Assembly (NCBI GenBank): GCA_009786185.1
Contig: WQTS01000144.1
Coordinates: forward strand, 46,127-110,126
Direction of reading: 5' to 3'
Length of the DNA: 64,000 nucleotides
Source: Bacteroidota bacterium
GTDB taxonomy: Bacteria; Bacteroidota; Bacteroidia; Bacteroidales; WCHB1-69
The position numbers and the translations under genes were made by a program. The notes beneath the pieces are model-generated. The model had not been told where the DNA came from and ran no database searches. It saw nothing but the letters and a program-made list of their open reading frames with translations. Within the stretch, counting starts at the first letter, position 1. Each line of letters begins with the position of its first letter. This document shows, piece after piece, positions 7,771 to 45,698 of the stretch.

Positions 7771-8595
7771 ATGAAAAAAATAATCATCTTATTATTTATT
7801 GCTATAGGTAGCTTACTTGTGTCCGCACAAGCTACACACGAATTTTCCATTCAAGGTGGGGGCGGATTGTCTACCCTCAATTATAAATTATCTGAAGGTA
7901 AGCACAGTCTCGGTTTTGGTGGAGATTTTGGACTGGGCTATACCTGTATCTTTAAAGAGAAGTGGGGTATCCATATTGGAGCAGGTTTGGGTTTATATAA
8001 TGCAAAAGTTAAACTTGATGATATAGAAGCAATTACGCCAAACCTCACCGACAGCGAAGGCGACTGCTTTAATATGCACACTATGCTTATCAACTACAAC
8101 GAAGCGCAAAAAACGATGTTTCTGAATATTCCAATTATGATACAATTCCAAACAAAAGGAAAGCAAAAAATCTACGCTAAAGCGGGGGGTAAAGTAGGCA
8201 TTCCATTAAACTGTAAATACAGCGTATCGGATGCCACACTTACCAATGTCGCTTATTATCCTGACTATAACAATTGGATGGCTATGCCGGAGTTTGCAGG
8301 CTTTGGTACTTTTACCAATCAAAAATCTGATGGGGAACTCAAATTGGGCATAGCAGCAATGCTTGCACTCGAAGCCGGAGTAAAATGGAAACTCGGCGAA
8401 AATCTTGTGCTCTATACTGGTGTCTATTTTGACTACGGGTTGAATAATATTCTTAAAAATAACGACCAACATTTTGTGAATTATGAAAATTCTTATCCTG
8501 CGGAATTTACAACTAACAGCGCACTCTCTTCTTTTACCGGAAATGTCAATCTTATGGCAATGGGGATTAAGTTGAGGTTGGCGTTAATAAATTAA
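7771..8595 (+). CDS. Outer-membrane beta-barrel protein, ~275 aa, homologous to 57619..58530
   Basis: Signal peptide MKKIIILLFIAIGSLLVSAQA and beta-strand periodicity. FLNIPIMIQFQTKGKQKIYAKAGGKVGIPL aligns with VFVPIYVGFQTAQRKTNFFFQAGGKIGYMF of the 303-aa protein. The start at 7771 avoids an overlap with the CTD of the upstream gene. Confidence 0.7.
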   Translation: MKKIIILLFIAIGSLLVSAQATHEFSIQGGGGLSTLNYKLSEGKHSLGFGGDFGLGYTCIFKEKWGIHIGAGLGLYNAKVKLDDIEAITPNLTDSEGDCFNMHTMLINYNEAQKTMFLNIPIMIQFQTKGKQKIYAKAGGKVGIPLNCKYSVSDATLTNVAYYPDYNNWMAMPEFAGFGTFTNQKSDGELKLGIAAMLALEAGVKWKLGENLVLYTGVYFDYGLNNILKNNDQHFVNYENSYPAEFTTNSALSSFTGNVNLMAMGIKLRLALIN

Positions 8596-8621
8596 GAATT
8601 TAGTTATAACATTCTGTATCC

Positions 8622-8659
8622 CAACCCCCTAAAAACCTTAGGGGGTTGTTTGTTTTTTT
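8622..8659 (+). terminator. Rho-independent terminator (CAACCCCCTAAAAACCTTAGGGGGTTG + T-run)
   Basis: GC-rich palindromic stem followed by TTTGTTTTTTT. Confidence 0.7.
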
Positions 8660-8701
8660 CTAAAAAAATTAGGGCGCTTGACTTACTTAATTAGTTGAAA
8701 A

Positions 8702-8735
8702 TTTGAATATTTCATAACTTTACATGCTATTTTTG
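8702..8735 (+). promoter_or_regulatory. Bacteroidota-type promoter: -33 TTTG (8702-8705) and -7 TATTTTTG (8728-8735)
   Basis: Same geometry (22-nt spacer) and same flanking blocks as the promoter at 1577..1610. Confidence 0.55.
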
Positions 8736-8804
8736 CAATAGAAAAAACAACGAAAAAATCGTTCAACAAAAAAGCAAAATTACGAACCTAAAAAATCAAT
8801 CTGT

Positions 8805-9230
8805 ATGAAAAAGCAAGTAAAAAAATCAATCATCTTAATAGGAATTATTGCAATGTCTATCTTACACCTATCAGCTAAAGAAAACAAAGAACTTTATATA
8901 AGCGCGGAAAACAATCTTTTACGTGGATATATTATTCCAATTGCGGAAAGTTATATAGGTAAGAAAATTTTTCTTTATGCTGATTTAGAGAATGACAAGC
9001 TTACATTAAATGTAAATAATTTGAACGCCGTGAGCTATCACATTATTGACGCAAATGGCAAAGTTTATGAAAAAAGTATACCAAAAAATAAAATTACACG
9101 CATAGATATCAGCGATTTGCAACAAGGGACTTATTATCTCACCGTTGAGAAAAGAAATAAAACTGTACTATTATTTAAAATCGTTAAAAAAACAAATGCA
9201 AAAAAATGTACATTTGCAAACCTCTTTTAA
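8805..9230 (+). CDS. 141-aa secreted mini-protein that is essentially a stand-alone T9SS-CTD-like module
   Basis: Has a signal peptide. LTLNVNNLNAVSYHIIDANGKVYEK...TRIDISDLQQGTYYLTVEKRNKTVLLFKIVKK follows the CTD pattern (x.I.D..Gk.v....idis.L..G.Y.l.v). Confidence 0.55.
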   Translation: MKKQVKKSIILIGIIAMSILHLSAKENKELYISAENNLLRGYIIPIAESYIGKKIFLYADLENDKLTLNVNNLNAVSYHIIDANGKVYEKSIPKNKITRIDISDLQQGTYYLTVEKRNKTVLLFKIVKKTNAKKCTFANLF

Positions 9231-9253
9231 AAAACTTTTTAAATTCTAAAAAT

Positions 9254-10669
9254 ATGTTTTACAAACTAAAAACACTTTGGCAATGTTTCACAAAAGATAA
9301 ATATGTTTTCTTTGATATTAATGAAGCTTCTCTTGCATTAGCCAAGGATATTGTAAAACATAAACGAGGCGCCGTGCTGTTTCTTAAAGATAAACCGTTA
9401 AAAAAACGCCTGCTTAAAAACAAAACGTATCTATTCTTTCTATCCGAGCACGATGATGCGAATATTCAATCGGTTTTATCATTTTTCACAACATGGAAAC
9501 GTGATGAATTTAAAAAAGTGCAACATAATTTAGAGTTGATTGTTCGCATACAAAACGAGTTAATGTATCCGGTGGTTGAAAATTATATAAAAAGTGCTCC
9601 TTTTAAAATATCTTATACGCTTTTTAATGATTCGGAACTGATAGCTTCCGAGTTAGTTAAAAAATTTCATCCTATTGATACGCTTAACGTAAATACACAA
9701 AACGCAACGGTGAACGATATTTATGAGGCGCTCATTGTTGGATTTGACGTAACCGGAAATTCAATTTTAAGAAAATTGATTGAAGCCACACAGTTTGTGG
9801 GAACCCAATTTAAAACTACGGTAATGGCAAACGATGCAATTACAAGTTTGGGATGTTTTTTAAACCATTACCCCGAAATGAAAAAGCATTATGCTATTGA
9901 TTTTTTGAATTATGAAATGGGAAGCGATGATTTTTCAGCGTGGTTATGCCAACATGTTACGACATTGAAACAGATTATTATTTCTACAGGAAATGATGAA
10001 AAAAACATTGCCATTGCTTCTGAGCTAAATCTCTTTTTGAAAAATCGTGATATTCATAACATTCCTATTATTATTGTGGTTCGCAGCAATGAACCTACAT
10101 TTTGGGAGCAAGCGAACGAATATTCCTTAATGCATTGTGTAGGCAAAAGTGAAGCAATATTTACCGAAAGTAAAGTGCTGAAATTAGATTATTTACATCA
10201 AGCAAAAGCGATACATCAATTCTATAACCAATTGAAACCTTTTGCGCAACGCATTCCATGGGAGCAACTTTCAGACATAAAAAAAGAATCGAATATTGCC
10301 GTGTCGGAGTCGCTTTATGCTAAACTGAAATTGATGGGCAAGACAGCCGATGAGGTAAAAGAAATGTCGGAAATACAGTTTCAGCTATTTCTACAGGAAC
10401 ACCCCGAGCGGCTGTTAAATTTAGCCATTGCAGAACATTTGCGATGGAATGCCACTTATTTTGCACATGGTTGGAGAACGTGGCATCTGTCGGAAATACC
10501 GGAAGACGCTCCGCATCAAGATGAAACAAAAAAACTACATGCCTGTTTGGTGGATTGGAGTACTCTGAAAGAACTTGAAAAACGCTTTGATGTTCCTTTT
10601 CAAATTTATGATTATAATAATATCATGATAATGCGGTCATTGCTCGCAAATAATATATTAGCTTCATAA
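9254..10669 (+). CDS. Cytoplasmic protein with degenerate tandem Rossmann (TrkA_N-like) regions and a C-terminal RyR-like repeat domain
   Basis: ALIVGFDVTGNSILRKL resembles the GxGxxG strand-loop. The C-terminal IPWEQLSDIKKESNIAVSESLYAKLKLMG ... AEHLRWNATYFAHGW ... DETKKLHACLVDWSTL follows the bacterial RyR-domain pattern. Start chosen at MFYKL (9254), after the stop of the previous gene. Confidence 0.5.
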   Translation: MFYKLKTLWQCFTKDKYVFFDINEASLALAKDIVKHKRGAVLFLKDKPLKKRLLKNKTYLFFLSEHDDANIQSVLSFFTTWKRDEFKKVQHNLELIVRIQNELMYPVVENYIKSAPFKISYTLFNDSELIASELVKKFHPIDTLNVNTQNATVNDIYEALIVGFDVTGNSILRKLIEATQFVGTQFKTTVMANDAITSLGCFLNHYPEMKKHYAIDFLNYEMGSDDFSAWLCQHVTTLKQIIISTGNDEKNIAIASELNLFLKNRDIHNIPIIIVVRSNEPTFWEQANEYSLMHCVGKSEAIFTESKVLKLDYLHQAKAIHQFYNQLKPFAQRIPWEQLSDIKKESNIAVSESLYAKLKLMGKTADEVKEMSEIQFQLFLQEHPERLLNLAIAEHLRWNATYFAHGWRTWHLSEIPEDAPHQDETKKLHACLVDWSTLKELEKRFDVPFQIYDYNNIMIMRSLLANNILAS

Positions 10670-10676
10670 AAAAGAT

Positions 10677-12542
10677 ATGACTACAAACATTGTACCTATG
10701 AAAATACAATCTGCCCTTTTTTCAAAAATTTACATCCCATTTCTTGTCGCATTGTTGTGGGTTCCGATGATAGGGTATGGACAAACGTCCAAATGTTTTG
10801 ATCTTGAGAAGATTAAAAAAATGTACGCTTCCACTTTTCTTGAGGTAAACTCCATGCTTTTTCAGGAGAATTGGGAAATTATTGCCAATTCAAATCAGGC
10901 GCCTTTTGTTTTTGGAAATGACACGTTAATGTATGATAATTTTTCACAATGGATATATCAATTATCTGTAGATAAATGGTTTGTTTCTCAATATAGAAAA
11001 AAAGAGCAAGACCCGATATTAGTCATACAAACTTCAAAAACTTGTTACGAAACCCTTGAATCTGAGTTGCAAAAGAATAAATCTATTGCCCAAATCATAA
11101 TGGAAGATTCTGTGCAGCGTTTGCGTATTTTTCAAATTCGGGAAGGAATGGATATTGTTTTTCCGCCGCGCAAGAGCCGCCAGCCTTATATCATCATAGT
11201 AGGTAATTATGCGCAAATAAGCTCCTTAATAAAAATACAAAACGCAGAAAAAGAAGAGTATGAAAAAACGTTGCAAAAGCAACAACAGCTTATTCAAACG
11301 GCAATGGAACAGGCAGATTTATTAAGAAATACAGAAGATTACGAAAACGCAATGCTTGTGTTGAAACAAATTGCAAACCAGCATTTTATTGAAAGAGAAG
11401 AGTTGATTATTGAGTTTCAGGAAGTGAATAATAAAATAGACACCGTAAAGAAAGAACTTGATATAAAGAACTTCAATCTTTATATTCAACTTGCCGATGA
11501 AGCTTTTGCCGCAGGAAAATATGTTTTAGCAAAAGAATATTTACTGAAAGCTCAGCAAATTGATCCCACTTCTCCCATTGTACTGCAAAAATTGAAAGAG
11601 ATAGAAAAAGTAGAATCCATGTTTTTAATTCGGAGAGACACAACTTTCGATTATGTACTTTACAATAGAAAAACAAGCGATGAAATTCAAACCGATATTT
11701 TTAAAAGACTTAGAAATTATTTCTTGAATCTTGATGCAGGAGATATTCAATTTGCTTATACGTTGCATACCGATACGTTGGGGCAAAATGTGTCTTCTCA
11801 TCAAATCAATATCTTCTCGTTGCGCCCAAATGCCAAGTCATCTTTTCCTATGAGCACCGAAGCAACGTGGTCTTTATTTTTAGATACATTGTTCATCATT
11901 CGACCTATTCCGGCGGTTACAATAGATCATCTTTATGTAAACGCTGCGACTACATTTCAAAATACGTCTTCATGGAGCTCATCATTAGTAAAAGTGTCTA
12001 ATGGTGGAAGAAGGATCAGAATTTCGCCACCCAATATTCCTGTTGCCGAAAAACGCACATTAGAAAAATATTTCCTAAGCAACCACTCATTCCCAAAAGG
12101 CAAATACACTATTGAAAAAAAGAAAATTATACATCAAGATTCATTATATACTACATTAGCTTTGAAGAAAATCTATACGGTGGGACCTGAAGCTATGTTG
12201 TATTCCATGCTGTTTCCGGGTGCCGGATCTTTAGCAGCTACGCAAGGCAAAAAGGGATGGGGCGCTTTTAGTACTTTTATTATATTTGGCGGCATAGGAG
12301 CAGCAGGACTTTTAGTTTCAGATCGCTTGGCAAAAAAGGGAGACACGGATCCAAAAACAATTAATGCCGTAAAATATGCTTCTTTTGGTTCGCTTGGCGT
12401 GGCCGGTGTTATTTATATTTGCGATGTTTTTATAGCTTTGAAACGAGGCATAGACAATCAGAAAAAATCTCGCGCCATAAAAGCAAAGCTCAAAGAAGAT
12501 ACCCTCTTTATTCAAGAATTTCCTCAACAAATTGAATTTTAG
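10677..12542 (+). CDS. 621-aa envelope protein: N-terminal signal/anchor, coiled-coil plus one TPR-like unit, large periplasmic region and a C-terminal Gly-rich multi-TM segment
   Basis: N-terminal IYIPFLVALLWVPMIGYGQ. TPR-like ADEAFAAGKYVLAKEYLLKAQQIDP. The C-terminal MLFPGAGSLAATQGKKGWGAFSTFIIFGGIGAAGLLV and SFGSLGVAGVIYICDVFIAL are hydrophobic helices. Confidence 0.55.
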   Translation: MTTNIVPMKIQSALFSKIYIPFLVALLWVPMIGYGQTSKCFDLEKIKKMYASTFLEVNSMLFQENWEIIANSNQAPFVFGNDTLMYDNFSQWIYQLSVDKWFVSQYRKKEQDPILVIQTSKTCYETLESELQKNKSIAQIIMEDSVQRLRIFQIREGMDIVFPPRKSRQPYIIIVGNYAQISSLIKIQNAEKEEYEKTLQKQQQLIQTAMEQADLLRNTEDYENAMLVLKQIANQHFIEREELIIEFQEVNNKIDTVKKELDIKNFNLYIQLADEAFAAGKYVLAKEYLLKAQQIDPTSPIVLQKLKEIEKVESMFLIRRDTTFDYVLYNRKTSDEIQTDIFKRLRNYFLNLDAGDIQFAYTLHTDTLGQNVSSHQINIFSLRPNAKSSFPMSTEATWSLFLDTLFIIRPIPAVTIDHLYVNAATTFQNTSSWSSSLVKVSNGGRRIRISPPNIPVAEKRTLEKYFLSNHSFPKGKYTIEKKKIIHQDSLYTTLALKKIYTVGPEAMLYSMLFPGAGSLAATQGKKGWGAFSTFIIFGGIGAAGLLVSDRLAKKGDTDPKTINAVKYASFGSLGVAGVIYICDVFIALKRGIDNQKKSRAIKAKLKEDTLFIQEFPQQIEF

Positions 12543-12545
12543 CCA

Positions 12546-13460
12546 ATGAAAGATTTCGACATTTTTATTAGTTATTCTTCAAACGACAGATCCATTGCCG
12601 ATCAATTGGTAACGCACATTGAACAAGCAGGATATACCTGCTGGATTGCCCCAAGAAATATTGAAGGCGGCGCCGAATACAGTGAAGTGATAGAAAAAGC
12701 CATATTAAAATGTAAGATTTTTTTGCTTGTTTTTTCAGAAAACTCTGCAAACTCTCCTTGGGTAAAAAGTGAATTAAATATCGCTTTTTCAGAAAATAAA
12801 TACCTCATTCCCTATAAAATAGACGCAACACCCTTGAAAGGAACCATGCGTTTGCTTTTAAATGATAAACACTGGATTGCAAACAATGAAGATGAAAACA
12901 AACAAATGAACCTGCTCCTTTCTGCCATTCAAAATTATTTTACGAAGTTGGAAAAAGGGGAAGCAGAAAATTTCTCCGGAAATCCTTTTTATTTGGAGGT
13001 CGCCAAACAAAAAAAGAGAAAGAAAATTATTTTGAGCGCTTCATTTATTGGTCTTCTTATTGTAATAGGGGTAATTATATTTGGCATTGTTTTTTCATCT
13101 AATCAAAAACATCTTAAACAATACAACGATTTAATAACGCAGGCTTTTTCTATACAAGAAACATCGGTTAATGATTTTATCGTCATGCGTAACCTGCTAC
13201 TTAAAGCGCAAGAAATTGAAAACGAGATTCCTGTGTCGCAGCGAAAAGATATTTCCGGGATTTTGTTTCAAATTGACTTTAAATTAGATTCCATTCACTA
13301 CAAAAACCTTGAAGATGCTCGCTGGTTTGCCATACCGGAAACGAAACACGGAGATAAACAAGCTATAGAACGTTATAAATTGGCATTGCAAGCCAAAGAA
13401 GATTCGGTAGCACGTAACGAACTTAATATAATTTTATCAAGAAAGGGTAATTATGAATAG
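12546..13460 (+). CDS. TIR-domain protein with a single TM helix and a ~115-aa extracytoplasmic tail
   Basis: N-terminal DIFISYSSNDRSIADQL...CWIAPRNIEGGAEYSEVIEKAILKCKIFLLVFSENSANSPWVKSELNIAF is a TIR_2-type domain. The conserved Glu is at residue 76 (nt 12771-12773). The TM helix is IILSASFIGLLIVIGVIIFGIVFS (residues ~161-184). Confidence 0.85.
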   Translation: MKDFDIFISYSSNDRSIADQLVTHIEQAGYTCWIAPRNIEGGAEYSEVIEKAILKCKIFLLVFSENSANSPWVKSELNIAFSENKYLIPYKIDATPLKGTMRLLLNDKHWIANNEDENKQMNLLLSAIQNYFTKLEKGEAENFSGNPFYLEVAKQKKRKKIILSASFIGLLIVIGVIIFGIVFSSNQKHLKQYNDLITQAFSIQETSVNDFIVMRNLLLKAQEIENEIPVSQRKDISGILFQIDFKLDSIHYKNLEDARWFAIPETKHGDKQAIERYKLALQAKEDSVARNELNIILSRKGNYE

Positions 13461-15270
13461 ATTTTTTCTTTTTCTATGTTTTTTATTTTTAACGAACTTG
13501 TTGTATTCGCAATGCTATGAACCTATGCGTAAAGACGGTATTACTTTTTATAACAGAGGCGAATATCCGAAAGCGATTAATTGTTTTATGGCAGCGCAAC
13601 GATGCCCTGATAAGCCGGCAACTCACGATCTAAATAAATGGATTGCCGATTGTAATGCCAAAATCAATGCAGTACCGACAACTTCAAAAACGCAATCACA
13701 AGTTTGTTATGTCCCTATTTTGAAAGCGGCACAGGTTTCTTTTTTTAACGATAACTTTGTGGATGCCAAAGGATTATTCATCGAAGCCCGAAAATGTTCA
13801 GATCTTCCTGTAGATAATGAATTGGCGTTTTGGATTAAAATTTGCGACGATCAACTTGAGTTCTTAGATTGTATTGCAGAAAATTACACTCCATTTTATC
13901 TCAAAGGGAACGAGTTTTTCAGAAGAGGTGATTTTGAAAAATCCAAAGAAAATTACCTTCTCGCTTCACAAAGTGAATGTATTCCCAATGATTTGGATGT
14001 GTACGTAAAAATTGCGGCATGCGACCAAAAAATCAGAGAAAAACGCTTCAATACATTGCTTCACGATACCATATCGGTTAATTTTTGGGGAAAAGAAGGT
14101 GTTTTTATGGGACATGTACAATTTAATAAACCTAATGGCAAGGGATTATTATTATTTACGAAAGATCCGGTGTTTAAAAGTATTGAGGGCGATTTTAAAA
14201 ACGGAGAACCGATAGGAACGGTTCATTGCATCTTTAACAATCACGATGAATTTACAGGAACGCTTAAAGATGATGGTTTTGAAATCGGCACTTATAAATA
14301 CGCAAATGGTGATATTTATGACGGCTCTTTTAACCAACGAGTACCTAACGGAGAAGGCACAATGCGCTATACCAACGGTGATGTTTATACCGGTAGAATG
14401 GTCAATGGGAAAAAAGAAGGGATAGGAAAATTAACAGTAAAATCGGGATATATTGCCAATGCTCAAGGTGCAACAGCGTATGAGGGCATTTGGTCAGCCA
14501 ATCAGAAAGGTTTTGGAAAATGTTATGACGACAAAGGAGTCTTGATTCACGAAGGTGTTTTTATTAACGATTTTCCGGAAAAAGATTATCCCAATCGTGT
14601 AATGCGTATTTCATTCACATGGGTAGAAGTGCCTGCAGGAACTTTTACCATGGGATGTACATCGTTGCGAGATTGTACGGGCAGAGACCGTCCGGCGCGT
14701 ACCGTAACGCTTTCTGAGTTTCAAATCAGCGATAAGCAAGTTACGGTTGCTCAATACCGTACATTCTGCGAAGCTACAGGACGAAGTATGCCAACCAGAC
14801 CTTCTTGGGGCTGGGAAGACGACCACCCAATTGTTAATGTTACTTGGAACGATGCCGTAGCCTTTTGCCAGTGGACCAATTGCAGGTTACCCACCGAAGC
14901 CGAGTGGGAATATGCTGCCCAAGGTGCTATAGAGCCACGCCAAAAATTGTATAGCGGAAGCAATAACTTGAGAGAAGTGGGATATTTTATGGATAACACT
15001 TCGCGTGTTAGATCGGTAGGGCAGAAAAAACCCAATGAATTGCTGATTTATGATATGTCCGGCAATGTAAGTGAGTGGGTATCCGATTGGTTTGATGTTT
15101 ACCCTCAAGGTGCGCAGAAAGATCCTCAAGGAGCTTCTCAAGGAACTCATAGGGTGGTGCGAGGCGGTAACTGGTTTAGTAGTGAAGAAGAATGCAGGAT
15201 AACTTACCGTGGAATATGCGAACCTCACTTAGGTAACACTTATCTCGGATTTAGAGTAGTGCGCAATTGA
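13453..15270 (+). CDS. Secreted protein with three Cys4 helical modules, MORN repeats and a C-terminal FGE-sulfatase (SUMF1-like) domain
   Basis: Signal peptide MNRFFLFLCFLFLTNLLYSQ. MORN-like YANGDIYDGSFNQRVPNGEGTMRYTNGDVYTGRMVNGKKEG. FGE hallmarks are VTVAQYRTFCEATG, NVTWNDAVAFCQW, RLPTEAEWEYAAQG, SGNVSEWVSDWF, RVVRGGNW and LGFRVVRN. It overlaps the previous gene by 8 nt. Confidence 0.85.
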   Translation: MNRFFLFLCFLFLTNLLYSQCYEPMRKDGITFYNRGEYPKAINCFMAAQRCPDKPATHDLNKWIADCNAKINAVPTTSKTQSQVCYVPILKAAQVSFFNDNFVDAKGLFIEARKCSDLPVDNELAFWIKICDDQLEFLDCIAENYTPFYLKGNEFFRRGDFEKSKENYLLASQSECIPNDLDVYVKIAACDQKIREKRFNTLLHDTISVNFWGKEGVFMGHVQFNKPNGKGLLLFTKDPVFKSIEGDFKNGEPIGTVHCIFNNHDEFTGTLKDDGFEIGTYKYANGDIYDGSFNQRVPNGEGTMRYTNGDVYTGRMVNGKKEGIGKLTVKSGYIANAQGATAYEGIWSANQKGFGKCYDDKGVLIHEGVFINDFPEKDYPNRVMRISFTWVEVPAGTFTMGCTSLRDCTGRDRPARTVTLSEFQISDKQVTVAQYRTFCEATGRSMPTRPSWGWEDDHPIVNVTWNDAVAFCQWTNCRLPTEAEWEYAAQGAIEPRQKLYSGSNNLREVGYFMDNTSRVRSVGQKKPNELLIYDMSGNVSEWVSDWFDVYPQGAQKDPQGASQGTHRVVRGGNWFSSEEECRITYRGICEPHLGNTYLGFRVVRN

Positions 15271-16860: not shown

Positions 16861-17406
16861 ATGAACTTCTTAAAATTCAACTCTGTAGAAGAGAAAATCA
16901 TCATCATTAGAGGCATTCCCGTTATTTTGGATAGCGATGTTGCAGAACTCTATGAAGTAGAAACGAAACGCATTAATGAAGCGGTTAAAAACAATCCCGA
17001 TAAATTTCCAGAAGGATATCTTTTGGAAGTCAATCAAAATGAGAAGATTGAACTGGTCGAAAATTTCGACCGGTTCAACAAACTAAAACATTCAACCGTT
17101 TTTCCAACAGCATTTACCGAAAAAGGGATGTATATGTTGGCTACTATCTTAAAAAGCCCAAAAGCCACACAAACCACCATTGATATTGTGGAAACCTTTG
17201 CTAAATTTCGTGAACTTTCGCGTGCAGTTTCCCAATTATCGAAAACTGAAAATGAACTCACCCAAAAGTCATTAATGCAAAAAAGCGGCGAAATTATTGC
17301 AGATCTTTTGGAAAATGATTTAGAGATTACCGATGCAGAAACCACTTGGGAAATTAACCTTGCCATGATGAAGTTCAAACGCACGGTCAGACAGAAGAAG
17401 AAGTGA
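16861..17406 (+). CDS. ORF6N (KilA-N-related) DNA-binding domain protein
   Basis: IRGIPVILDSDVAELYEVETKRINEAVKNNPDKFPEGYLLEV is the ORF6N signature. Confidence 0.8.
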   Translation: MNFLKFNSVEEKIIIIRGIPVILDSDVAELYEVETKRINEAVKNNPDKFPEGYLLEVNQNEKIELVENFDRFNKLKHSTVFPTAFTEKGMYMLATILKSPKATQTTIDIVETFAKFRELSRAVSQLSKTENELTQKSLMQKSGEIIADLLENDLEITDAETTWEINLAMMKFKRTVRQKKK

Positions 17407-17478
17407 GATTATCTTTCGAAATAAACTATAATTTCGCGGTGTAGAATAGTACTACGTAACGAAATACAAATTAAAGGT

Positions 17479-18987
17479 ATGAAAAACATAAAAAAAGACC
17501 TCCCCGTAATCATAGGCGTAGTTGCAGCCACCTCTTTAGCTTGTGTTACAGGCGGATTGGTTAATTCAGCTACCATGAGCATACTGGGCAAAGTTGGAAG
17601 CAATATTGGTACGCGTCTTGCGGCTAACTATATCTATGGGTTCAACCCCGGCAGAATTAAAAGATGGTTTGTGGATATTCATCCTGATGATTTAAACCAC
17701 AGTATTAAAAAATTGTTTGTAGCTTCGGTGAATGAAGCGTTGCACAATATTTCAATCTTATTTGATGAAACGAAAGCTACGGAAGCTGAGAAGAAAGAAG
17801 CCGACCGGTTAATCAAAATATTACAAAAGCAATTGCCCGGCATGCTTATGGATAGCAAGCAAATTCAGTTTGATGAAACCGAAATTAAGCAGTTCCTTTA
17901 TGAAAAAGGCGATGATGAAATGATTTGCAATTTTGTTGAAAAGCAATTCAATACTTTTGGAATAGACGAACCTTTTAAATCATTTTTAGCGCAAAATTTG
18001 TCGCCACAACTTCAACTTTGTTTTGGAGAAGGTTTAAAAGACCCCGCCAATCAAAATGCGTGGATTGCCTTTCAAAGAATGTTAACAGAGGAGATCCGTC
18101 ACGACATCAAGCAAATTGCCGATACACAGCAAAGTATTAAAGATGACCTTTCGGATTTGAAATTTGAAAAAGCGGGCTTCTCAGAAGAGCAAATGGCTGA
18201 AATTCGCGAACTTGTAAAGATACTGAACGACAAAAAGTTAATTGAGGTAAAAATCAAAAATGGACTTGATGAAAGTTTGAAATCTCTTGAGAGCAAGGCA
18301 AACGAGGTCATCAAAATTACTACTAAAACGCAAATTACGGTAGAGGAGTTAAAAACTCTCGTAGAAAAAAGCAACAGACAAAAAGAAAAAGACCGTATCA
18401 TCATTTACATTTTGGCTGCTTGTTTGTTTATTGCAGGAGCATTCATCGGATATAATGTTGTAAAAAAGCCTTTTACAACAACGGTTAAAGTGGTGGGTTG
18501 GGAAAGCGAGCAGCACAATCCATTAAACGGCAAAGGCAGTATCGTTTTAACTTTAGGCGATAAAATGGAAAAAGCGGAGATTAGTCGCCAAGGTGAAGCA
18601 ATTTTTAAAAGTGTTCCTTCTAAATATGATGGCAAAATGGTAACCGCTCATCTCACTGACACAGAAGGCGAGCCCTATTTTTTGCCAGACAGCATGATTA
18701 AAATTCAAAAAAACAATACCACAAAAGTGCAGGTGCTGTTGCGCGGATTGGAAAAATTGCAAGGAACCGTTTTTGACAATGTTTCAGGTGAAGGTGTGCC
18801 GGAGGTGATGGTAACTGTGGCAGGCATAAGCGGAATCACTGATTCAAGCGGATACTTCAGCATTGATATTCCCATAGAAAAACAACGACAAGAACAAAAG
18901 ATTGTAATTAGTAAGGAAGGCTATGAAAGCAAACGGGAAACTATTTCTATGACAGGGGAGTATAATGTGGTTTTGAGACGAAAATGA
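17479..18987 (+). CDS. 502-aa membrane protein: Gly/Ala/Ser-rich N-terminal segment, helical cytoplasmic region, coiled-coil, TM helix and two extracytoplasmic CarboxypepD_reg-like Ig domains
   Basis: TM helix IIIYILAACLFIAGAFIGYNVV at ~residue 310. The C-terminal LQGTVFDNVSGEGVPEVMVTVAGISGITDSSGYFSIDI is a carboxypeptidase-regulatory-like motif. Confidence 0.55.
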   Translation: MKNIKKDLPVIIGVVAATSLACVTGGLVNSATMSILGKVGSNIGTRLAANYIYGFNPGRIKRWFVDIHPDDLNHSIKKLFVASVNEALHNISILFDETKATEAEKKEADRLIKILQKQLPGMLMDSKQIQFDETEIKQFLYEKGDDEMICNFVEKQFNTFGIDEPFKSFLAQNLSPQLQLCFGEGLKDPANQNAWIAFQRMLTEEIRHDIKQIADTQQSIKDDLSDLKFEKAGFSEEQMAEIRELVKILNDKKLIEVKIKNGLDESLKSLESKANEVIKITTKTQITVEELKTLVEKSNRQKEKDRIIIYILAACLFIAGAFIGYNVVKKPFTTTVKVVGWESEQHNPLNGKGSIVLTLGDKMEKAEISRQGEAIFKSVPSKYDGKMVTAHLTDTEGEPYFLPDSMIKIQKNNTTKVQVLLRGLEKLQGTVFDNVSGEGVPEVMVTVAGISGITDSSGYFSIDIPIEKQRQEQKIVISKEGYESKRETISMTGEYNVVLRRK

Positions 18988-19069
18988 TAGGTAAAGATTG
19001 TTATAAAGAACACGGATGACACAGATAACACGGATTTACACTGAATAATATCTAAAAAATCAATATAAA

Positions 19070-21307
19070 ATGAAAAAAACGCACACCGCACACCGCATAC
19101 CGCATACCGCAATCTGCCTTCTGCTTTCTGCCTTCTGCTTTTTACCCCTTTCTGCGCAGCAAGTGCAATTGAAAGGCGTTGTTACCGTGCAAAATAGCAA
19201 AACCCACACCGGTAAAACACAATACGTGAAAAATGCAGAGATAGAGCACGTCAATGTTAAAAATGCTAAAACTAAAGACGTTACCGGTGATGATGGAAAA
19301 TTTACGCTGAATATTCAAGGGGTGGGAGCCAATACGCAAACGCAAATAGCCGTAACACTGCATGGTGCATATAGCGATTATGTGATTGTAAATGAAAAAG
19401 AGTTGCGCGATATTACTTTGGGACGCTTAACCCCTATTAGTGTGTTCATCTGCAAAAAAGGCGATTTAGAGCAGCGGCAAGCGGAAATGGTAGGCATCAA
19501 TATGCGGAAATTGGAAGAACGTTTGGAAAAAGATAAAAATCGTTTGCAAAAAGAGCTAAACGATTTGAGAGCTAAGAGCGATTATATGAACGTTCGTTAC
19601 AGCGAAATAAAAGACAGCCTGAATGTTATCAGTAAAAATATTGACAATGCTTTTGAGCGCATCAAAGAATATGCCAAAAGCATGACGCTTGAAAATTTAG
19701 ATGACAGAGATGAAAATTACGTAAAAGCTTATGGAGCTTTTTCAAGAGGTGAATTAGATAGTGTTTCCTATTATTTGCGCGATGATGAATTAGATTTGAA
19801 GTACCAAAAAATAGTGCAATTACAGCATGAAGCCAAAAAAGAAAGAGAGTTAGCCGCCATATTAACCGAATCGGCTCAGCAAAAAGAAGAGTATTCGGAA
19901 AACAAACTGAATGAATTAATAAAAGAATGGTTGTTGTTGGCGCGTACTTACGATATGAAGAATGATTATGAAAAAACAATGATGTACTACGAAAAAGTAG
20001 TTTATGCCGATACATTGAATTTAGATGTTTTTGTTGAATATGCCGAATATCTATATAAAATCAGGGAGTTTGCCAAATCTGAAAAATATTTCCAATATTG
20101 TTTGGCAAAATATAGAGAACTTGCAGCAAACAATCCCAATTATTTGCCGGATGTAGCATTTACATTAAATGATTTAGCAAATTTACAAAGGGATAATAAA
20201 GAGTTTTCTGTTGCCTTACAAAATTTCGAAGAGGCTTTGAGAATGCGTAAAGAACTTGCAGTCGAAAATCCTAAAGTATACTTAAAATATGTAGCATCAA
20301 CTTTGCACAACTTGGGAAATTTGCATAATAATTTAAATGACCATCCGGAAGCGTTCAGACATTATGAAGAGTCTTTAAAAATTCGCGAAGAACTTGCAAA
20401 GGAAGATCCAAAAGCACATTTAAGTAATATAGCTGCAACATTGAACAATTTGGCAGTTTTGCACGTGGATCGTAATGAACTTGAGGCAGGTATGAAAAAA
20501 CACCAAGAGGCTTTAGAAATACGTCGTGCACTTGCTGCAGAAAATCCAAAAGCCTATTTGCCTGCTGTGGCAGCATCTTTGAACAATTTGGCGATTTTGC
20601 ATAGAAAAAAAGGCGAGTTTCACGAGGCTTTGATGAAATATGAAGAGGCTTTAAAAATACGTAAAGAGCTTGCTGTAGAGAATCCTAAAGCTTATATTCT
20701 TGAAGTATCGCAAACATTGAATAATTTGGCAATTTTACATTACTCAAACAAAGAATATCCGGCAGCTTTGCAAGCGTTCGAAGAATCTTTGGAAATACGC
20801 CGTGCACTTGCTGCAGAAAACCCAAAAGCATACTTGTCTTCTGTGGCAGCGACTTTAAACAATATGGCAATTTTGCATTTTGCAATTTTTGAATACTCAA
20901 CTGCCGTACAGAAATATGAAGAATCTTTAATAATTCATGAAAAACTTGCTATTGATAATCCGAAGGTTTTTTTACCATTGGTAATAGCAACAAGCACCGA
21001 TGTCGCAAGATGCTATCTTTTTACCAAGAAATTTACTCAAGCTGAACAATTTGCAAACAAAGCATTGGAATTAGACAGCAATTTTTTTAAAGCGACAACA
21101 AATCTTGCGCATGCTTTACTTCTTCAAAATCGCTTTTCGGAGGCGGAACCATTATATTTGGAATTGGCACAAACCATTAAGGAAGGTAATGAAACCTATA
21201 CCCAAACACTTTTGAATGATTTGGATATACTTGAGGAGGAAGAGGTTATTCCCGAAGAACGCAAGGCAGATGTGGAGAAAATTAGAGAAATGTTACGAGG
21301 GCAATAG
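19070..21307 (+). CDS. 745-aa secreted protein: CarboxypepD_reg-like domain, coiled-coil and ~8 kinesin-light-chain-type TPR (TPR_10/12) repeats
   Basis: The signal peptide ends LPLSAQ. LKGVVTVQNSK...VTGDDGKFTL is present. There are repeated 42-aa units of the type EALEIRRALAAENPKAYLPAVAASLNNLAILH. Confidence 0.7.
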   Translation: MKKTHTAHRIPHTAICLLLSAFCFLPLSAQQVQLKGVVTVQNSKTHTGKTQYVKNAEIEHVNVKNAKTKDVTGDDGKFTLNIQGVGANTQTQIAVTLHGAYSDYVIVNEKELRDITLGRLTPISVFICKKGDLEQRQAEMVGINMRKLEERLEKDKNRLQKELNDLRAKSDYMNVRYSEIKDSLNVISKNIDNAFERIKEYAKSMTLENLDDRDENYVKAYGAFSRGELDSVSYYLRDDELDLKYQKIVQLQHEAKKERELAAILTESAQQKEEYSENKLNELIKEWLLLARTYDMKNDYEKTMMYYEKVVYADTLNLDVFVEYAEYLYKIREFAKSEKYFQYCLAKYRELAANNPNYLPDVAFTLNDLANLQRDNKEFSVALQNFEEALRMRKELAVENPKVYLKYVASTLHNLGNLHNNLNDHPEAFRHYEESLKIREELAKEDPKAHLSNIAATLNNLAVLHVDRNELEAGMKKHQEALEIRRALAAENPKAYLPAVAASLNNLAILHRKKGEFHEALMKYEEALKIRKELAVENPKAYILEVSQTLNNLAILHYSNKEYPAALQAFEESLEIRRALAAENPKAYLSSVAATLNNMAILHFAIFEYSTAVQKYEESLIIHEKLAIDNPKVFLPLVIATSTDVARCYLFTKKFTQAEQFANKALELDSNFFKATTNLAHALLLQNRFSEAEPLYLELAQTIKEGNETYTQTLLNDLDILEEEEVIPEERKADVEKIREMLRGQ
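19080..19140. repeat. Tandem heptamers CGCACAC/CGCATAC x4.5 (19080-19111), then TCTGCCTTCTGCTT x2 (19113-19140)
   Basis: Read directly from the sequence. They lie inside codons 4-24 of the 19070 CDS, in the signal peptide. Confidence 0.9.
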
Positions 21308-45153: not shown

Positions 45154-45203
45154 TTTATAATATTTTAAATGATTTAGTAAAATAGTAACTCTTCTTTGTG
45201 CAA

Positions 45204-45297
45204 CTCTGTGCCTCCTCTGTGGTTCTCTGTGTTTAAAAAAATATGTTCCTCAGCTTTCAGTGTTTTTTACACGGAGAACCACAGAGGAGGCACAGAG
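45204..45297. repeat. Inverted-repeat element built from CACAGAG words (28-bp arms, 1 mismatch, 38-nt spacer)
   Basis: CTCTGTGCCTCCTCTGTGGTTCTCTGTG (45204-45231) pairs with CACGGAGAACCACAGAGGAGGCACAGAG (45270-45297). It lies between two co-directional minus-strand genes. Confidence 0.9.
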
Positions 45298-45312
45298 AAC
45301 CACAGAAAGAAA

Positions 45313-45669
45313 TTAAGAATAATAGATTCGCTGCGAAGTGAAATTCAAGAAATTAATCCCCACTAATTTTAGCAATGGCGGAATGGGATATTCAAAAATA
45401 GGTGTCGTTTTTTCAAAAAACTCATTTACAGAAATATAGAAAAACAAAACCGTTTCTACTAAAGGAGATGAAAAACAAGCAGTTTCACTTTTAACAAACT
45501 CACCTTCTATTTTAACTAAAATCTTAGTCTCATGACAATGATTATGTTCATTTTTAGCATGAACATGCTTAGAGCAGCATTCATGCAATGTGATGACAAT
45601 ACCCGATGAGAGCATAAAGAAAAATGCACTAAAAAGAATGATAAACGAATTGCGAAATTTCTTTTTCAT
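45313..45669 (-). CDS. Small secreted Cys/His-rich protein encoded upstream of the TonB-dependent receptor (possibly HYC_CC_PP-like)
   Basis: MKKKFRNSFIILFSAFFFML signal/anchor, LHECCSKHVHAKNEHNHCHE and a C-terminal YPIPPLL. The start at 45669 fits the -7 box at 45691-45698. Confidence 0.55.
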   Translation of the reverse strand: MKKKFRNSFIILFSAFFFMLSSGIVITLHECCSKHVHAKNEHNHCHETKILVKIEGEFVKSETACFSSPLVETVLFFYISVNEFFEKTTPIFEYPIPPLLKLVGINFLNFTSQRIYYS

Positions 45670-45690
45670 CAGGATGAATAAATGAGGGCA

Positions 45691-45698
45691 CAAAAATA
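45691..45698 (-). promoter_or_regulatory. -7 box TATTTTTG (minus strand) for the 45313..45669 / receptor operon
   Basis: The reverse complement of CAAAAATA matches TAnnTTTG 22 nt upstream of the ATG at 45669. Confidence 0.45.

Follow-up and report, generated by a model that had tools for sequence, protein, structure and literature searches.

The bacterial systems closest to the locus described here are Thoeris, the phage protein RyDEP and the conflict systems that use FGS sensor domains. Thoeris effectors are often membrane proteins or channels, among them Macro-TM, DUF2270, SLATT and the 'ion channel' type X (10.64898/2025.12.03.692087); RyR/R12 was not found among the effector domains named in the text and available tables of that preprint. 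In RyDEP, the residues H75, W78, H100 and D117 bind and cleave 2'/3'cADPR (PMC13232231). FGS sensor domains occur in prokaryotic conflict systems, with links to TIR domains (Kaur et al. 2020, 2021; PMC7159879, PMC8195603). Here, we compare with these systems a gene cluster in the window, the whole 64,000-nucleotide stretch of Bacteroidota DNA that was analysed, for which a preliminary description had proposed a five-gene, envelope-spanning operon centred on a TIR protein.

The ORF listing showed five open reading frames on the same strand, with gaps of 23, 7 and 3 nt followed by an 8-nt overlap, which, together with the TIGR00479 match of the convergent rlmD gene, reproduced the arrangement first described. 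The ATG taken as the start of gene 2 (9254) is identical to that chosen by external gene calls. The features of the locus are as follows, the residue codons having been verified by a codon check.

8606 to 8759, + strand: upstream cassette, a 154-nt repeated element, 81% identical to 1481-1634
8805 to 9230, + strand: gene 1, 141 aa, signal peptide and T9SS type-A C-terminal sorting domain
9254 to 10669, + strand: gene 2, 471 aa, cytoplasmic, two Rossmann/RCK-like domains, helical linker and C-terminal RyR (R12) domain
10409 to 10648, + strand: RyR/R12 domain of gene 2, aa ~386-465
10436-10438, 10445-10447, 10538-10540 and 10610-10612, + strand: codons of the RyR tetrad H395, W398, H429 and D453
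10677 to 12542, + strand: gene 3, 621 aa, envelope protein with signal peptide and an invariant Q36 at the predicted cleavage site
12183 to 12446, + strand: Gly-rich membrane tail of gene 3, aa ~503-590, resembling DUF5683
12546 to 13460, + strand: gene 4, 304 aa, TIR domain, single TM and periplasmic tail
12546 to 12935, + strand: TIR domain of gene 4, aa 1-130, TIR_2 E=4e-24
12771 to 12773, + strand: codon of E76 in gene 4
13041 to 13460, + strand: TM helix (aa ~166-188) and periplasmic tail (aa 189-304) of gene 4
13453 to 15270, + strand: gene 5, 605 aa, secreted, signal peptide and invariant Q20-C21
15273 to 16682, - strand: rlmD, TIGR00479 E=6.5e-106, ending 2 nt past gene 5

The "promoter cassette" reported upstream of the genes was confirmed as a hairpin at 8622-8648 and the 154-nt element. 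The hairpin, in the 5' part, is a terminator that belongs to the preceding outer-membrane protein (OMP) gene, and downstream of it lies an AT-rich promoter-like element with TATTTTTG. The surroundings are chromosomal and consist mainly of housekeeping genes (rlmD, PEPCK, RmuC, purM), unlike a classical defence island, and the sole defence-type neighbour in the region is an ORF6N/PDC-S05 gene. We counted this setting against a Thoeris-like reading of the cluster.

Gene 1, which matched the profiles Por_Secre_tail (E=3e-8) and TIGR04183 (E=4e-9), had no ortholog in any other locus compared; its homologs are restricted to copies of the same genome. In the other loci its position is occupied by a different T9SS cargo gene or by none, and T9SS cargo genes of differing families lie directly upstream of gene 2 in three of four genome contexts. 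By this comparison of gene content, gene 1 is outside the conserved unit, which reduces the proposed five genes to four, genes 2-5, with which gene 1 is probably co-transcribed. The adjacency of gene 3 and the TIR gene recurred in about 12 metagenomic loci that are independent of one another and have unrelated flanks; the related sequences come from uncultured organisms. Of the 9 loci with DNA available downstream, 8 have a MORN-FGE gene after the TIR gene, and of the 8 with DNA available upstream, 7 have an RyR-domain gene there. All four parts are kept in L096, where gene 3 is 27% and gene 5 is 44% identical and the RyR genes are on the opposite strand. The claim of co-conservation thus stood for genes 2-5, in varied flanks and orders and down to 27% identity, and failed for gene 1; moreover, the FGE gene is absent from L004, L099 has gene 3, TIR and FGE genes and no RyR gene, and remote gene 3 homologs stand alone amid housekeeping genes. 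Judged by gene order across these loci, genes 2-5 are a real, conserved four-gene cluster that is not strictly obligate.

The TIR protein encoded by gene 4 retains a glutamate, E76, which is shared without exception by 18 orthologs and occupies the alignment position of the catalytic Glu in RPV1, Cat1 and TIR-STING, in agreement with its initial assignment as catalytic. Hydropathy analysis detected one membrane window at residues 158-188 (core ~166-188), directly preceded by six K/R and followed by a conserved, helical tail of 116 aa. From the positive-inside rule and the lack of a signal peptide, the TIR domain is predicted to lie on the cytoplasmic face, and these properties, with the TIR_2 match, bear out the tethering of TIR to the inner membrane face by one TM helix.

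The Rossmann/RCK-like pair of gene 2 spans residues ~14-300 and has a degenerate glycine motif (GFDVTG at 163-168). The AF2 model (pLDDT 91.5) shows two Rossmann-like domains and a helical C-terminal domain; it resembles two-domain Rossmann proteins and the RCK gating rings of CASTOR and GsuK, and Foldseek matched it to phage RyR-domain proteins. The Pfam RyR match of gene 2 alone is weak (E=8e-4), and the assignment is backed by the family alignment and by a PDB profile match to RyR-domain structures. The tetrad H395/W398/H429/D453 is invariant across the 41 aligned family members and aligns with standalone RyR proteins and with the RyR-like protein 3NRT of B. thetaiotaomicron. Because these residues are the equivalents of the nucleotide-contacting His/Trp/His/Asp of RyDEP, we infer that the domain may receive a TIR-made signal; what is observed is the conservation of the pocket and the linkage of the family to TIR genes, and the pocket residues are also compatible with hydrolysis, that is, with a signal terminator. 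No TM segment was detected in gene 2 by hydropathy, and a multi-TM region stands at the N-terminus of most family members. The wide family to which gene 2 belongs has the layout (multi-TM)-double Rossmann-RyR, and in the window this protein has lost the TM region. Its TM-less form and its degenerate glycine motif were counted against the Thoeris-like reading.

Linkage of the RyR family to TIR genes extends beyond this lineage. In a sample of about 80 genomic loci of the gene 2 family from Bacteroidota, Bacillota, Spirochaetota, Lentisphaerota and other phyla, a TIR gene was present in 29, in 20 of them on the same strand and no more than 700 nt away, and none was found in the DNA available around the other 51. 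The density of TIR genes was 7.4 per 100 kb within 3 kb versus 0.45 per 100 kb beyond, an approximately 16-fold difference. Glutamate at the catalytic position is kept in all 34 TIR genes near family members, as in gene 4, and TIR-TM-X is the layout of 19 of these TIR genes, where X is Sel1 (9-11 cases), WD40/PD40, RHS or an unknown domain. Standalone RyR proteins adjoin approximately 35 of the 80 loci, and further neighbours include Ion_trans_2+RyR paralogs, IU-nucleoside-hydrolase genes and genes for DUF4062 TIR-like NADases, all of which fit ADPR-nucleotide biology. The dismissal of Thoeris in the preliminary description, made because a SLOG or Macro partner was missing, had overlooked the RyR domain of gene 2; since that fold binds 2'/3'cADPR (PMC13232231) and its family is tied to TIR genes across phyla, the cluster is Thoeris-like in logic. 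No PADLOC or NCBIfam Thoeris model passed threshold for the cluster. PADLOC matched only the TIR domain and named no system, as the first reading had expected, and no published description of the gene 2-5 arrangement was found in the literature.

The remaining two products are directed to the envelope. In gene 3, an alpha/beta domain leads into long TPR/coiled-coil helices (aa 178-316), after which come a beta-rich domain and the membrane tail, and the C-terminal peptide ...IQEFPQQIE is conserved; the structural model is poor (pLDDT 63), and the membrane topology is tentative. Gene 5 comprises three Cys-rich helical TPR-like modules (aa ~20-200), MORN repeats (~215-370) and an FGE-sulfatase (C-type-lectin-like) domain (388-604; Pfam E=1.3e-51). 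These domain and signal-peptide calls, and the invariant Gln at the predicted cleavage site in both proteins, agree with the anatomy originally described. At the position of the catalytic Cys336 of human FGE, which is also Cys in S. coelicolor FGE, gene 5 has Ser, and all orthologs have Ser, Thr or Asp. Absence of one of the two catalytic cysteines suggests that the domain is probably a binding fold rather than an FGE enzyme. It is not hypervariable across orthologs, and no diversity-generating retroelement (DGR) was found near the cluster. The suspected link between TIR and FGE was substantiated by fusion proteins, both TIR with MORN and TIR with FGE; the latter, P0027, has the layout TIR-TM-FGE with a TIR 52% identical to that of gene 4, and the literature likewise links TIR and FGS domains (PMC7159879, PMC8195603).

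Taken together, these data leave us evenly balanced on whether genes 2-5 constitute a TIR signalling module that spans the envelope and follows a Thoeris-like path from TIR to nucleotide to RyR, in which TIR would be controlled from the periplasm. The TIR of gene 4 would sit on the cytoplasmic side of the inner membrane, tethered through its TM helix to the short periplasmic helical tail. Genes 5 and 3, the latter anchored via its DUF5683-like tail, would provide the extracytoplasmic sensing or scaffolding part, which in relatives may be represented by the variable outer domain (FGE, Sel1, WD40/PD40, RHS) fused behind the TM. A cue at the envelope, of which phage attack or a different assault on the envelope is the likeliest form, would promote TIR self-association, and the associated TIR with E76 would convert NAD+ to a nucleotide derived from ADP-ribose, for example a cADPR isomer, putatively received by the RyR domain of gene 2. 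In the wider family, RyR is joined to an N-terminal multi-TM region, and in paralogs to a K+-channel-type pore (Ion_trans_2); there, ion flux or membrane depolarisation with growth arrest would be the likely output. The TM-less gene 2 may work through the membrane tail of gene 3, or may mainly bind or hydrolyse the signal. If this is true, a TIR enzyme and secreted helpers coupled to an RyR protein would constitute an unnamed bacterial envelope-sensing pathway, and the best reading suggests an immune or signalling role for it.

A different division of labour, which we consider unlikely, makes the TIR itself the effector, depleting NAD+ and thereby causing abortive infection or growth arrest, with the RyR protein as a safeguard or regulator that binds or hydrolyses cADPR by-products, like the RyDEP sponge/glycosidase, or resets the system. 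The relatives P0027 and P0030 (TIR-Sel1) have no RyR gene on the contigs available, and L099 has none either; gene 2, with its degenerate Rossmann motif, has no output domain of a membrane or enzymatic kind; the H+D dyad that gives RyDEP its glycosidase activity is invariant here; and small, sponge-like standalone RyR proteins accompany many loci. Against this, P0027, alone on short contigs, and P0030 are known from contigs of only 4-7.5 kb, so a partner may be encoded elsewhere, and the multi-TM region of most family members and the K+-channel pore fused to RyR in paralogs are the architecture of an effector, not of a buffer.

The same wiring could also serve a non-immune role, namely envelope or environment signalling in gut Bacteroidota (surface glycans, cell-wall fragments, neighbouring cells), possibly tied to the T9SS surface proteins encoded upstream. 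The outer domain types (FGE/C-type-lectin fold, Sel1, MORN, TPR) are typical binders of glycans, peptidoglycan or proteins, and the location among housekeeping genes, the T9SS cargo genes upstream of gene 2, the solitary gene 3 homologs and the conserved, DGR-free FGE domain would all suit such a role. On the other hand, the flanks vary between loci as in mobile or accessory modules, and related loci have conflict-type neighbours (DUF1016/YhcG nucleases, AAA/STAND ATPases, DUF4062, NYN and extra TIRs). To our knowledge, every bacterial TIR system that has a catalytic Glu and has been characterised by experiment acts in defence or as a toxin, and a purely signalling role appears doubtful.

That the genes are packed together by chance or share transcription only, without forming a functional unit, is very improbable: gene 1 is not conserved and single components are absent in some loci, but the comparative data largely refuted this reading, with the gene 3-TIR-FGE order and an RyR gene kept to ~27% identity, the TIR-FGE and TIR-MORN fusions and the local TIR enrichment. 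It is extremely improbable that gene 5 is a true FGE or a PorK/GldK-type T9SS component in a cluster for sulfatase maturation or type IX secretion, because, despite the strong FGE-sulfatase match, the T9SS cargo gene upstream and partial NCBIfam matches (GldK/PorK at 93 bits, EgtB at 106 bits), these NCBIfam scores fall far under the curated cut-offs (350 and 360), the Cys336 position is Ser/Thr/Asp, and the cluster has TIR and RyR proteins as partners and no sulfatase genes.

The Thoeris-like, envelope-spanning module can be set beside several known systems. With the anti-phage Thoeris systems (types I-XI), in which the TIR protein ThsB is paired with an effector activated by its signal, it shares a TIR with a catalytic Glu beside a protein bearing a domain shown to bind TIR-made cADPR isomers, and the TM- or pore-bearing character of the wider RyR family. 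In contrast, ThsB is cytosolic, whereas the TIR of gene 4 is membrane-anchored, with an extracytoplasmic tail, or an outer domain in relatives; the secreted or envelope products of genes 3 and 5 are part of the unit; and defence is a candidate role for the cluster. As in the FGS systems, an FGE fold with no enzymatic role is tied to TIR as a presumed ligand binder, directly so in the P0027 fusion. The systems of Kaur et al. are, however, intracellular, NTPase-regulated (STAND, MoxR-vWA) and often DGR-diversified, whereas the FGE domain of gene 5 is secreted or periplasmic and conserved, with no DGR and no NTPase in the unit. The order of repeat-type outer domain (Sel1, WD40, RHS, FGE), single TM and cytoplasmic TIR in relatives recalls Toll-like receptors, but the orientation is inverted, with TIR N-terminal and the outer domain C-terminal, and the bacterial TIR, in which the catalytic Glu is retained, is presumably an enzyme, not a scaffold. 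Pairing with RyR proteins, some with a channel pore, parallels the SARM1/CD38-cADPR-ryanodine receptor axis; only the R12 repeat domain is shared with RyR channels. The two animal systems are analogues, and possibly mark an evolutionary source, rather than a class to which the cluster belongs. Gene 2 resembles RCK/KTN proteins (TrkA_N; TrkA, GsuK, CASTOR) in its tandem Rossmann-like domains, in the TrkA_N/Slo-like RCK Pfam matches of relatives, in the Foldseek matches to CASTOR/GsuK rings (TM-scores low, <=0.39) and in the N-terminal TM region of most family members. It differs from them in the missing TM region, the degenerate GxGxxG and the extra C-terminal RyR domain, and the main family has no recognisable K+ selectivity filter. 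Finally, gene 2 shares with phage RyDEP (PMC13232231) the PF02026 domain, the same His/Trp/His/Asp and a structural match to phage RyR models, but it is cellular and encoded beside a TIR rather than used against it, with a putative role as receiver or regulator instead of in counter-defence, and its RyR domain is joined to a double Rossmann/RCK-like module and, in most relatives, to TM segments.

The layout outlined in the preliminary description, five co-directional ORFs with their spacing and domains, was confirmed by the ORF listing, Pfam and hydropathy analysis. The genes are separated by 23, 7 and 3 nt and then overlap by 8 nt, and the end of gene 5 is convergent with rlmD (TIGR00479, E=6.5e-106). 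Hydropathy indicated signal-peptide-like N-termini in genes 1, 3 and 5. The start used for gene 2 is the ATG also chosen by independent gene calls on identical contigs.

Genes of the TIR operon, from the ORF listing, with Pfam matches (window coordinates)
8805-9230: gene 1, T9SS mini-protein, 141 aa, Por_Secre_tail
9254-10669: gene 2, Rossmann-RyR protein, 471 aa, weak RyR match
10677-12542: gene 3, TPR/envelope protein, 621 aa, weak TPR match
12546-13460: gene 4, TIR-TM protein, 304 aa, TIR_2 (E=4e-24)
13453-15270: gene 5, MORN-FGE protein, 605 aa, MORN and FGE-sulfatase (E=1.3e-51)

The promoter cassette proposed for this operon proved to be real and to be a repeated element. It consists of a strong terminator hairpin, CCCCCTAAAA..TTAGGGGG with a T-run, at 8622-8648, which closes the preceding OMP gene, and of an AT-rich promoter-like stretch. 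The 154-nt AT-rich element at 8606-8759 is 81% identical to window positions 1481-1634, and the cassette is found upstream of two gene sets. The repeated intergenic elements suggest that the upstream surface-protein genes and the TIR operon may be under common control.

Envelope/surface gene cluster upstream of the operon (window 1668-8595)
1668-2276: OMP beta-barrel
2387-3358: phage-tail-collar-domain protein
3363-7757: T9SS cargo protein of 1464 aa with a Gly/Asn-rich region and an InlB-B-repeat-like domain
7714-8595: second OMP beta-barrel

A second repeated element, 86 nt long, occurs at window 1614-1699 and 2320-2405 (77% identity). On the other side of the operon, just past rlmD, window 16861-21307 encodes an ORF6N-domain protein matching the PADLOC candidate family PDC-S05 (E=1e-80), followed by a 502-aa TM/CarboxypepD_reg protein and then by a 745-aa TPR_10/TPR_12 (NPHP3-like) protein, whose gene contains 138-nt tandem repeats at 20198-20969. 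These genes are not conserved beside the TIR unit in other loci and may form a separate conflict module. Further along, two tandem paralogs of about 870 aa (25530-28151 and 28179-30767) share segments of 71-75% identity, and at least the first is an M6-peptidase-like T9SS cargo protein. A 53-nt imperfect inverted repeat (45186-45315, 79% complementary, 24-nt spacer) occupies the intergenic position between 42808-45153 and 45313-45693.

Full-length orthologs of the TIR-TM protein form 24 clusters at 59-91% identity, all metagenomic. For the neighborhood comparison, loci were pooled from the ortholog contigs, from a lookup of a distant gene-3 homolog and from a metagenome scan with a 10-sequence alignment as the query, and custom HMMs were applied. 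In about 12 distinct loci, whose flanks are unrelated to one another, a gene-3 homolog lies directly 5' of the TIR-TM gene. The MORN-FGE gene follows 3' of the TIR gene in 8 of the 9 loci with downstream DNA (the exception is locus L004), and a RyR-domain gene is found upstream in 7 of the 8 with upstream DNA (the exception is L099). The set is kept in L096 at only 27% identity for gene 3 and 44% for gene 5, with the RyR genes on the opposite strand. Among the related loci, the custom HMMs detected no homolog of gene 1 outside copies of the same genome, which rules it out as a conserved part of the system. On the basis of the locus counts, the conservation in L096 and the lack of outside homologs of gene 1, we conclude that the conserved unit is genes 2-5. 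The five-gene unit of the preliminary description was therefore right for four of its members but not for gene 1. The neighborhood of gene 3, TIR, FGE and RyR recurs across relatives, but the unit is not obligate: besides L004 and L099, L102 contains RyR and gene 3 and no TIR, and distant gene-3 homologs are solitary amid housekeeping genes in L109 and L111.

In three of four genome contexts the position immediately 5' of gene 2 is taken by T9SS C-terminal-domain cargo genes of unrelated families: the 141-aa mini-protein at window 8805-9230, an LRR_5 protein (L004:5253-6896) and an RHS-like protein (L008:5250-6542). This could be a Bacteroidota coincidence or a variable surface-exposed component of the system. 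At L104:4741-7515, both gene 3 (439+165 aa) and the TIR-TM gene (210+94 aa) are broken in two, whether by frameshift decay of the system or by errors of assembly.

The TIR protein has a single TM segment (hydropathy window 158-188, core ~166-188). Because six K/R residues come just before this segment, the TIR domain is predicted to be cytoplasmic. In an alignment with RPV1, Cat1 and TIR-STING, its E76 falls on their catalytic Glu, and it is invariant in orthologs. The nearest TIR outside the ortholog group is the 436-aa P0027 (52% identity), a fused TIR-TM-FGE protein whose TM lies at 167-196. This is the fused form whose existence had been raised as a possibility; it stands solo on short contigs (L011-L014). 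It argues for the FGE domain of gene 5 being the outer-domain module of the TIR protein. No homology of the periplasmic tail of gene 4 to genes 3 or 5 was detected.

The predicted signal-peptidase sites of genes 3 and 5 each carry an invariant Gln, in keeping with the Bacteroidetes "Q-rule". The gene 3 product combines TPR helices with a DUF5683-like, Gly-rich membrane tail and a conserved C-terminal peptide. It belongs to an uncharacterised family with 531 representatives at E<=1e-3; its AF2 model was poor (pLDDT 63), and Foldseek recognised the TPR part only. In gene 5, the position of human C336, the first catalytic Cys of FGE, is occupied by Ser (Ser, Thr or Asp in orthologs), while C581, equivalent to C341, is kept; the catalytic (Cu-binding) Cys pair is incomplete. 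The GldK/PorK model (TIGR03525) gave 93 bits against a cut-off of 350 and covered only the FGE fold, and the NCBIfam EgtB score was far below its cut-off. With one catalytic Cys missing and such scores, we rejected an FGE, EgtB or PorK enzyme as the identity of gene 5. Because the first catalytic Cys is replaced and the GldK and EgtB scores are far below their cut-offs, the domain is probably a binding fold. Kaur et al. described "FGS" sensor domains linked to TIR in conflict systems (PMC7159879, PMC8195603). The FGE domain of gene 5 resembles these as a predicted binding fold tied to TIR; unlike them, it is secreted, is not hypervariable and has no DGR. A repeat search found no DGR template/variable repeat in the 64-kb window, and the C-terminus of the FGE domain is conserved among orthologs; we consequently discarded DGR diversification of this domain.

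The gene 2 family reaches 620-870 aa and has a three-part layout: an N-terminal multi-TM region, which is missing from the ortholog group of the window, a Rossmann domain with a GFGxxG motif (GFDVTG in the window copy), and a C-terminal block EHLRWNA...LHxCLVxW...YDxxN. Hydropathy revealed no TM segment in the window gene 2. Its AF2 model (pLDDT 91.5, pTM 0.92) shows two Rossmann-like domains and a helical C-terminal domain. Foldseek against the PDB returned generic two-domain Rossmann dehydrogenases and the RCK gating rings CASTOR/GsuK at low TM-score, and allowed no specific enzyme assignment; the C-terminal part matched phage RyR-domain proteins in BFVD with probability 1.0. The Pfam RyR match of gene 2 is below threshold (20 bits against 27.4), relatives reach E=1e-20, and the family profile matches the RyR-domain crystal structures 6uhi and 3nrt. 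Gene 2 has both the fold and the sequence signature of the RyR family (PF02026). In a MAFFT alignment of gene 2, standalone bacterial RyR proteins and the B. thetaiotaomicron protein (3NRT), residues H395, W398, H429 and D453 correspond to the conserved His/Trp/His/Asp of the RyR domain. They are invariant in the family (n=41) and align with vHexW...kHPcL...YDR of the standalone RyRs and 3NRT. Phage RyDEP proteins, a RyR/R12-domain family, bind the TIR products 2'cADPR and 3'cADPR, and one cleaves, with H75, W78, H100 and D117 as ligand residues (2026 preprint, PMC13232231). The gene 2 tetrad consists of the exact counterparts of these four residues.

The association of RyR and TIR genes extends across phyla. 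A scan with the family alignment, using one genome per species, yielded 80 gene-2-family loci from Bacteroidales, Rikenellaceae, Clostridia, Lachnospiraceae, Spirochaetes, Lentisphaeria, Bacilli and others; they include two-gene relatives from culturable bacteria, such as the Fictibacillus aquaticus pair (L045) and the Butyrivibrio loci L049/L050. With a TIR HMM built from the matches of the gene 4 TIR homolog search, a TIR gene was found in 29 of the 80, and on the same strand within 700 nt in 20. Thirty-one TIR genes start less than 3 kb from the family gene (7.4 per 100 kb), against three further out (0.45 per 100 kb). The Glu at the catalytic position is kept in all 34 TIR genes near the RyR family, 19 of which show the gene-4-type layout of an N-terminal TIR, one TM at ~150-270 and a variable C-terminal region. 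By Pfam, the region behind the TM contains Sel1 (9-11 repeats), WD40/PD40 or RHS, or gives no match; TM-less TIR partners carry WG_beta_rep, MORN, TPR or STAND modules.

Standalone 90-100-aa RyR proteins or RyR paralogs occur in about 35 of the 80 loci, and further recurrent neighbors are Ion_trans_2+RyR proteins, IU-type nucleoside hydrolases, AAA ATPases and DUF4062 genes. In the Lachnospiraceae locus L062, a 529-aa fusion of a K+-channel-type Ion_trans_2 pore (E=1.7e-9) with RyR (7999-9588) precedes the family gene, and an inosine-uridine nucleoside hydrolase gene (11473-12468) follows it; L066, L069, L071, L074 and L076 have a similar arrangement. XopQ, a nucleoside-hydrolase-fold protein, has recently been reported to cleave 2'cADPR. 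A dense cluster at ~3.8-20 kb of L015 (also L043; Muribaculaceae/Rikenellaceae MAG CAYJAK010000003.1) looks like a multi-component TIR/RyR conflict island. Besides a gene-2 homolog of 626 aa, it encodes a 2xAAA ATPase (1209 aa), a 608-aa TIR-WG_beta_rep protein, a DUF4062 protein of 459 aa, a 1167-aa TPR_12 protein, a NYN nuclease and two further RyR proteins, one standalone (98 aa) and one of 705 aa. DUF4062 has been described as a TIR-like NADase (10.64898/2026.05.01.722283). Two other fusions, which like P0027 join parts that are separate in the window, adjoin gene-2 homologs: a 394-aa TIR-MORN x7 protein (L020:213-1397) and a 636-aa protein joining an FtsW/RodA-like TM domain to FGE (L082:11689-13599, Lentisphaeria).

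The reading best supported by these data, to which we give about even credence, is a four-step pathway. Genes 5 and 3, along with the periplasmic tail of gene 4, would read an envelope-level cue; this would drive the TIR domains to associate on the inner side of the membrane; the TIR would then make an ADPR-derived nucleotide by E76-dependent chemistry; and the RyR domain of gene 2 would bind it. The analysis shows the identity of the domains, the conservation of catalytic and ligand residues, a predicted topology, the linkage of the genes and the existence of fusion proteins; every biochemical step, and the biological role of the cluster, is inferred. In the wider family the output would probably be ion flux, through the TM region or the K+-pore paralogs. 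The TM-less gene 2 of the window, which has no obvious output domain, perhaps acts through the membrane tail and conserved C-terminal peptide of gene 3, or alternatively serves in signal buffering or hydrolysis. In a rival reading, which we consider unlikely, the TIR would itself be the effector and deplete NAD+ directly, with the RyR protein as a safeguard. A role other than defence for the same wiring seems to us similarly improbable.

If the four-step pathway is correct, TIR-made nucleotides would have a cellular receiver in the RyR (R12) domain, beyond the use of this domain as a phage counter-defence tool, and TIR immunity would gain a further class of effector. Whether the R12 domains of animal ryanodine receptors bind cADPR-type ligands was left open by the RyDEP authors (PMC13232231), and the cluster would offer a simple bacterial system in which to probe this. 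It would further mean that one TM helix and a set of interchangeable outer domains suffice to put bacterial TIR enzymes under control from outside the cytoplasm. It would also give a testable context to the gene-3, (TM)-Rossmann-RyR and secreted MORN-FGE families, which are uncharacterised and common in gut Bacteroidota and Clostridia. A bolder proposal, which we hold only tentatively, is that bacteria possess true transmembrane TIR receptors (repeat or lectin outer domain, TM, catalytic TIR) that sense outside the cytoplasm and signal by an ADPR-derived nucleotide to RyR-domain proteins, including ion channels with multi-TM or K+-pore fusions. Such receptors would be a prokaryotic precedent both for the animal pairing of TIR/cADPR with ryanodine-receptor channels and for the Toll-like receptor layout, and the operon of the window would be this receptor-channel system split over four proteins.

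Comparison with named systems places the cluster nearest to Thoeris. A TIR with the catalytic Glu is present (TIR_2, E76). PADLOC gave only domain-level ThsB matches (E 1e-9 and weaker), with none for genes 2, 3 and 5, and assigned the cluster to no named system; NCBIfam names none either, and its curated Thoeris models were not matched (ThcB4, 28 bits against a cut-off of 220). Thoeris type X, which has an "ion channel" effector, was considered as a possible RyR-domain channel system; a tblastn search with a type X TIR against plasmids returned Macro-type (type II) neighbors only. The text and part of the tables of the Thoeris survey preprint (Yirmiya et al. 2025) contain no mention of RyR, TrkA or PF02026, and that part of the tables lists no TIR with the WIAPR motif of the gene 4 clade. 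As far as these portions of the survey extend, the TIR-RyR pairing is apparently unnamed, and an earlier mention is possible. Genes 1-5 encode no NTPase domain (MoxR-vWA or STAND/GTPase) of the kind that characterises the NTP-dependent ternary conflict systems with TIR/FGS effectors (Kaur et al. 2020), and AAA/STAND genes occur near some related loci, not consistently. Gene 2, being without a TM, does not fit the RCK/KTN-gated channels; its relatives have multi-TM N-termini, and paralogs carry Ion_trans_2 as a putative pore. The earlier view that the cluster is not Thoeris holds in that no named type was matched, but the RyR domain of gene 2 gives it a Thoeris-like logic. To our knowledge, every Thoeris TIR characterised so far detects infection in the cytosol; a trigger at the envelope, if confirmed, would be a different surveillance point, in a layout analogous to Toll-like receptors. 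Like Thoeris, the cluster pairs a TIR with an adjacent protein carrying a candidate nucleotide-binding domain; unlike Thoeris, its TIR is membrane-anchored and has extracytoplasmic partners. Judged by its predicted domains, the cluster is Thoeris-like in logic and, by the tests run, outside every named type.
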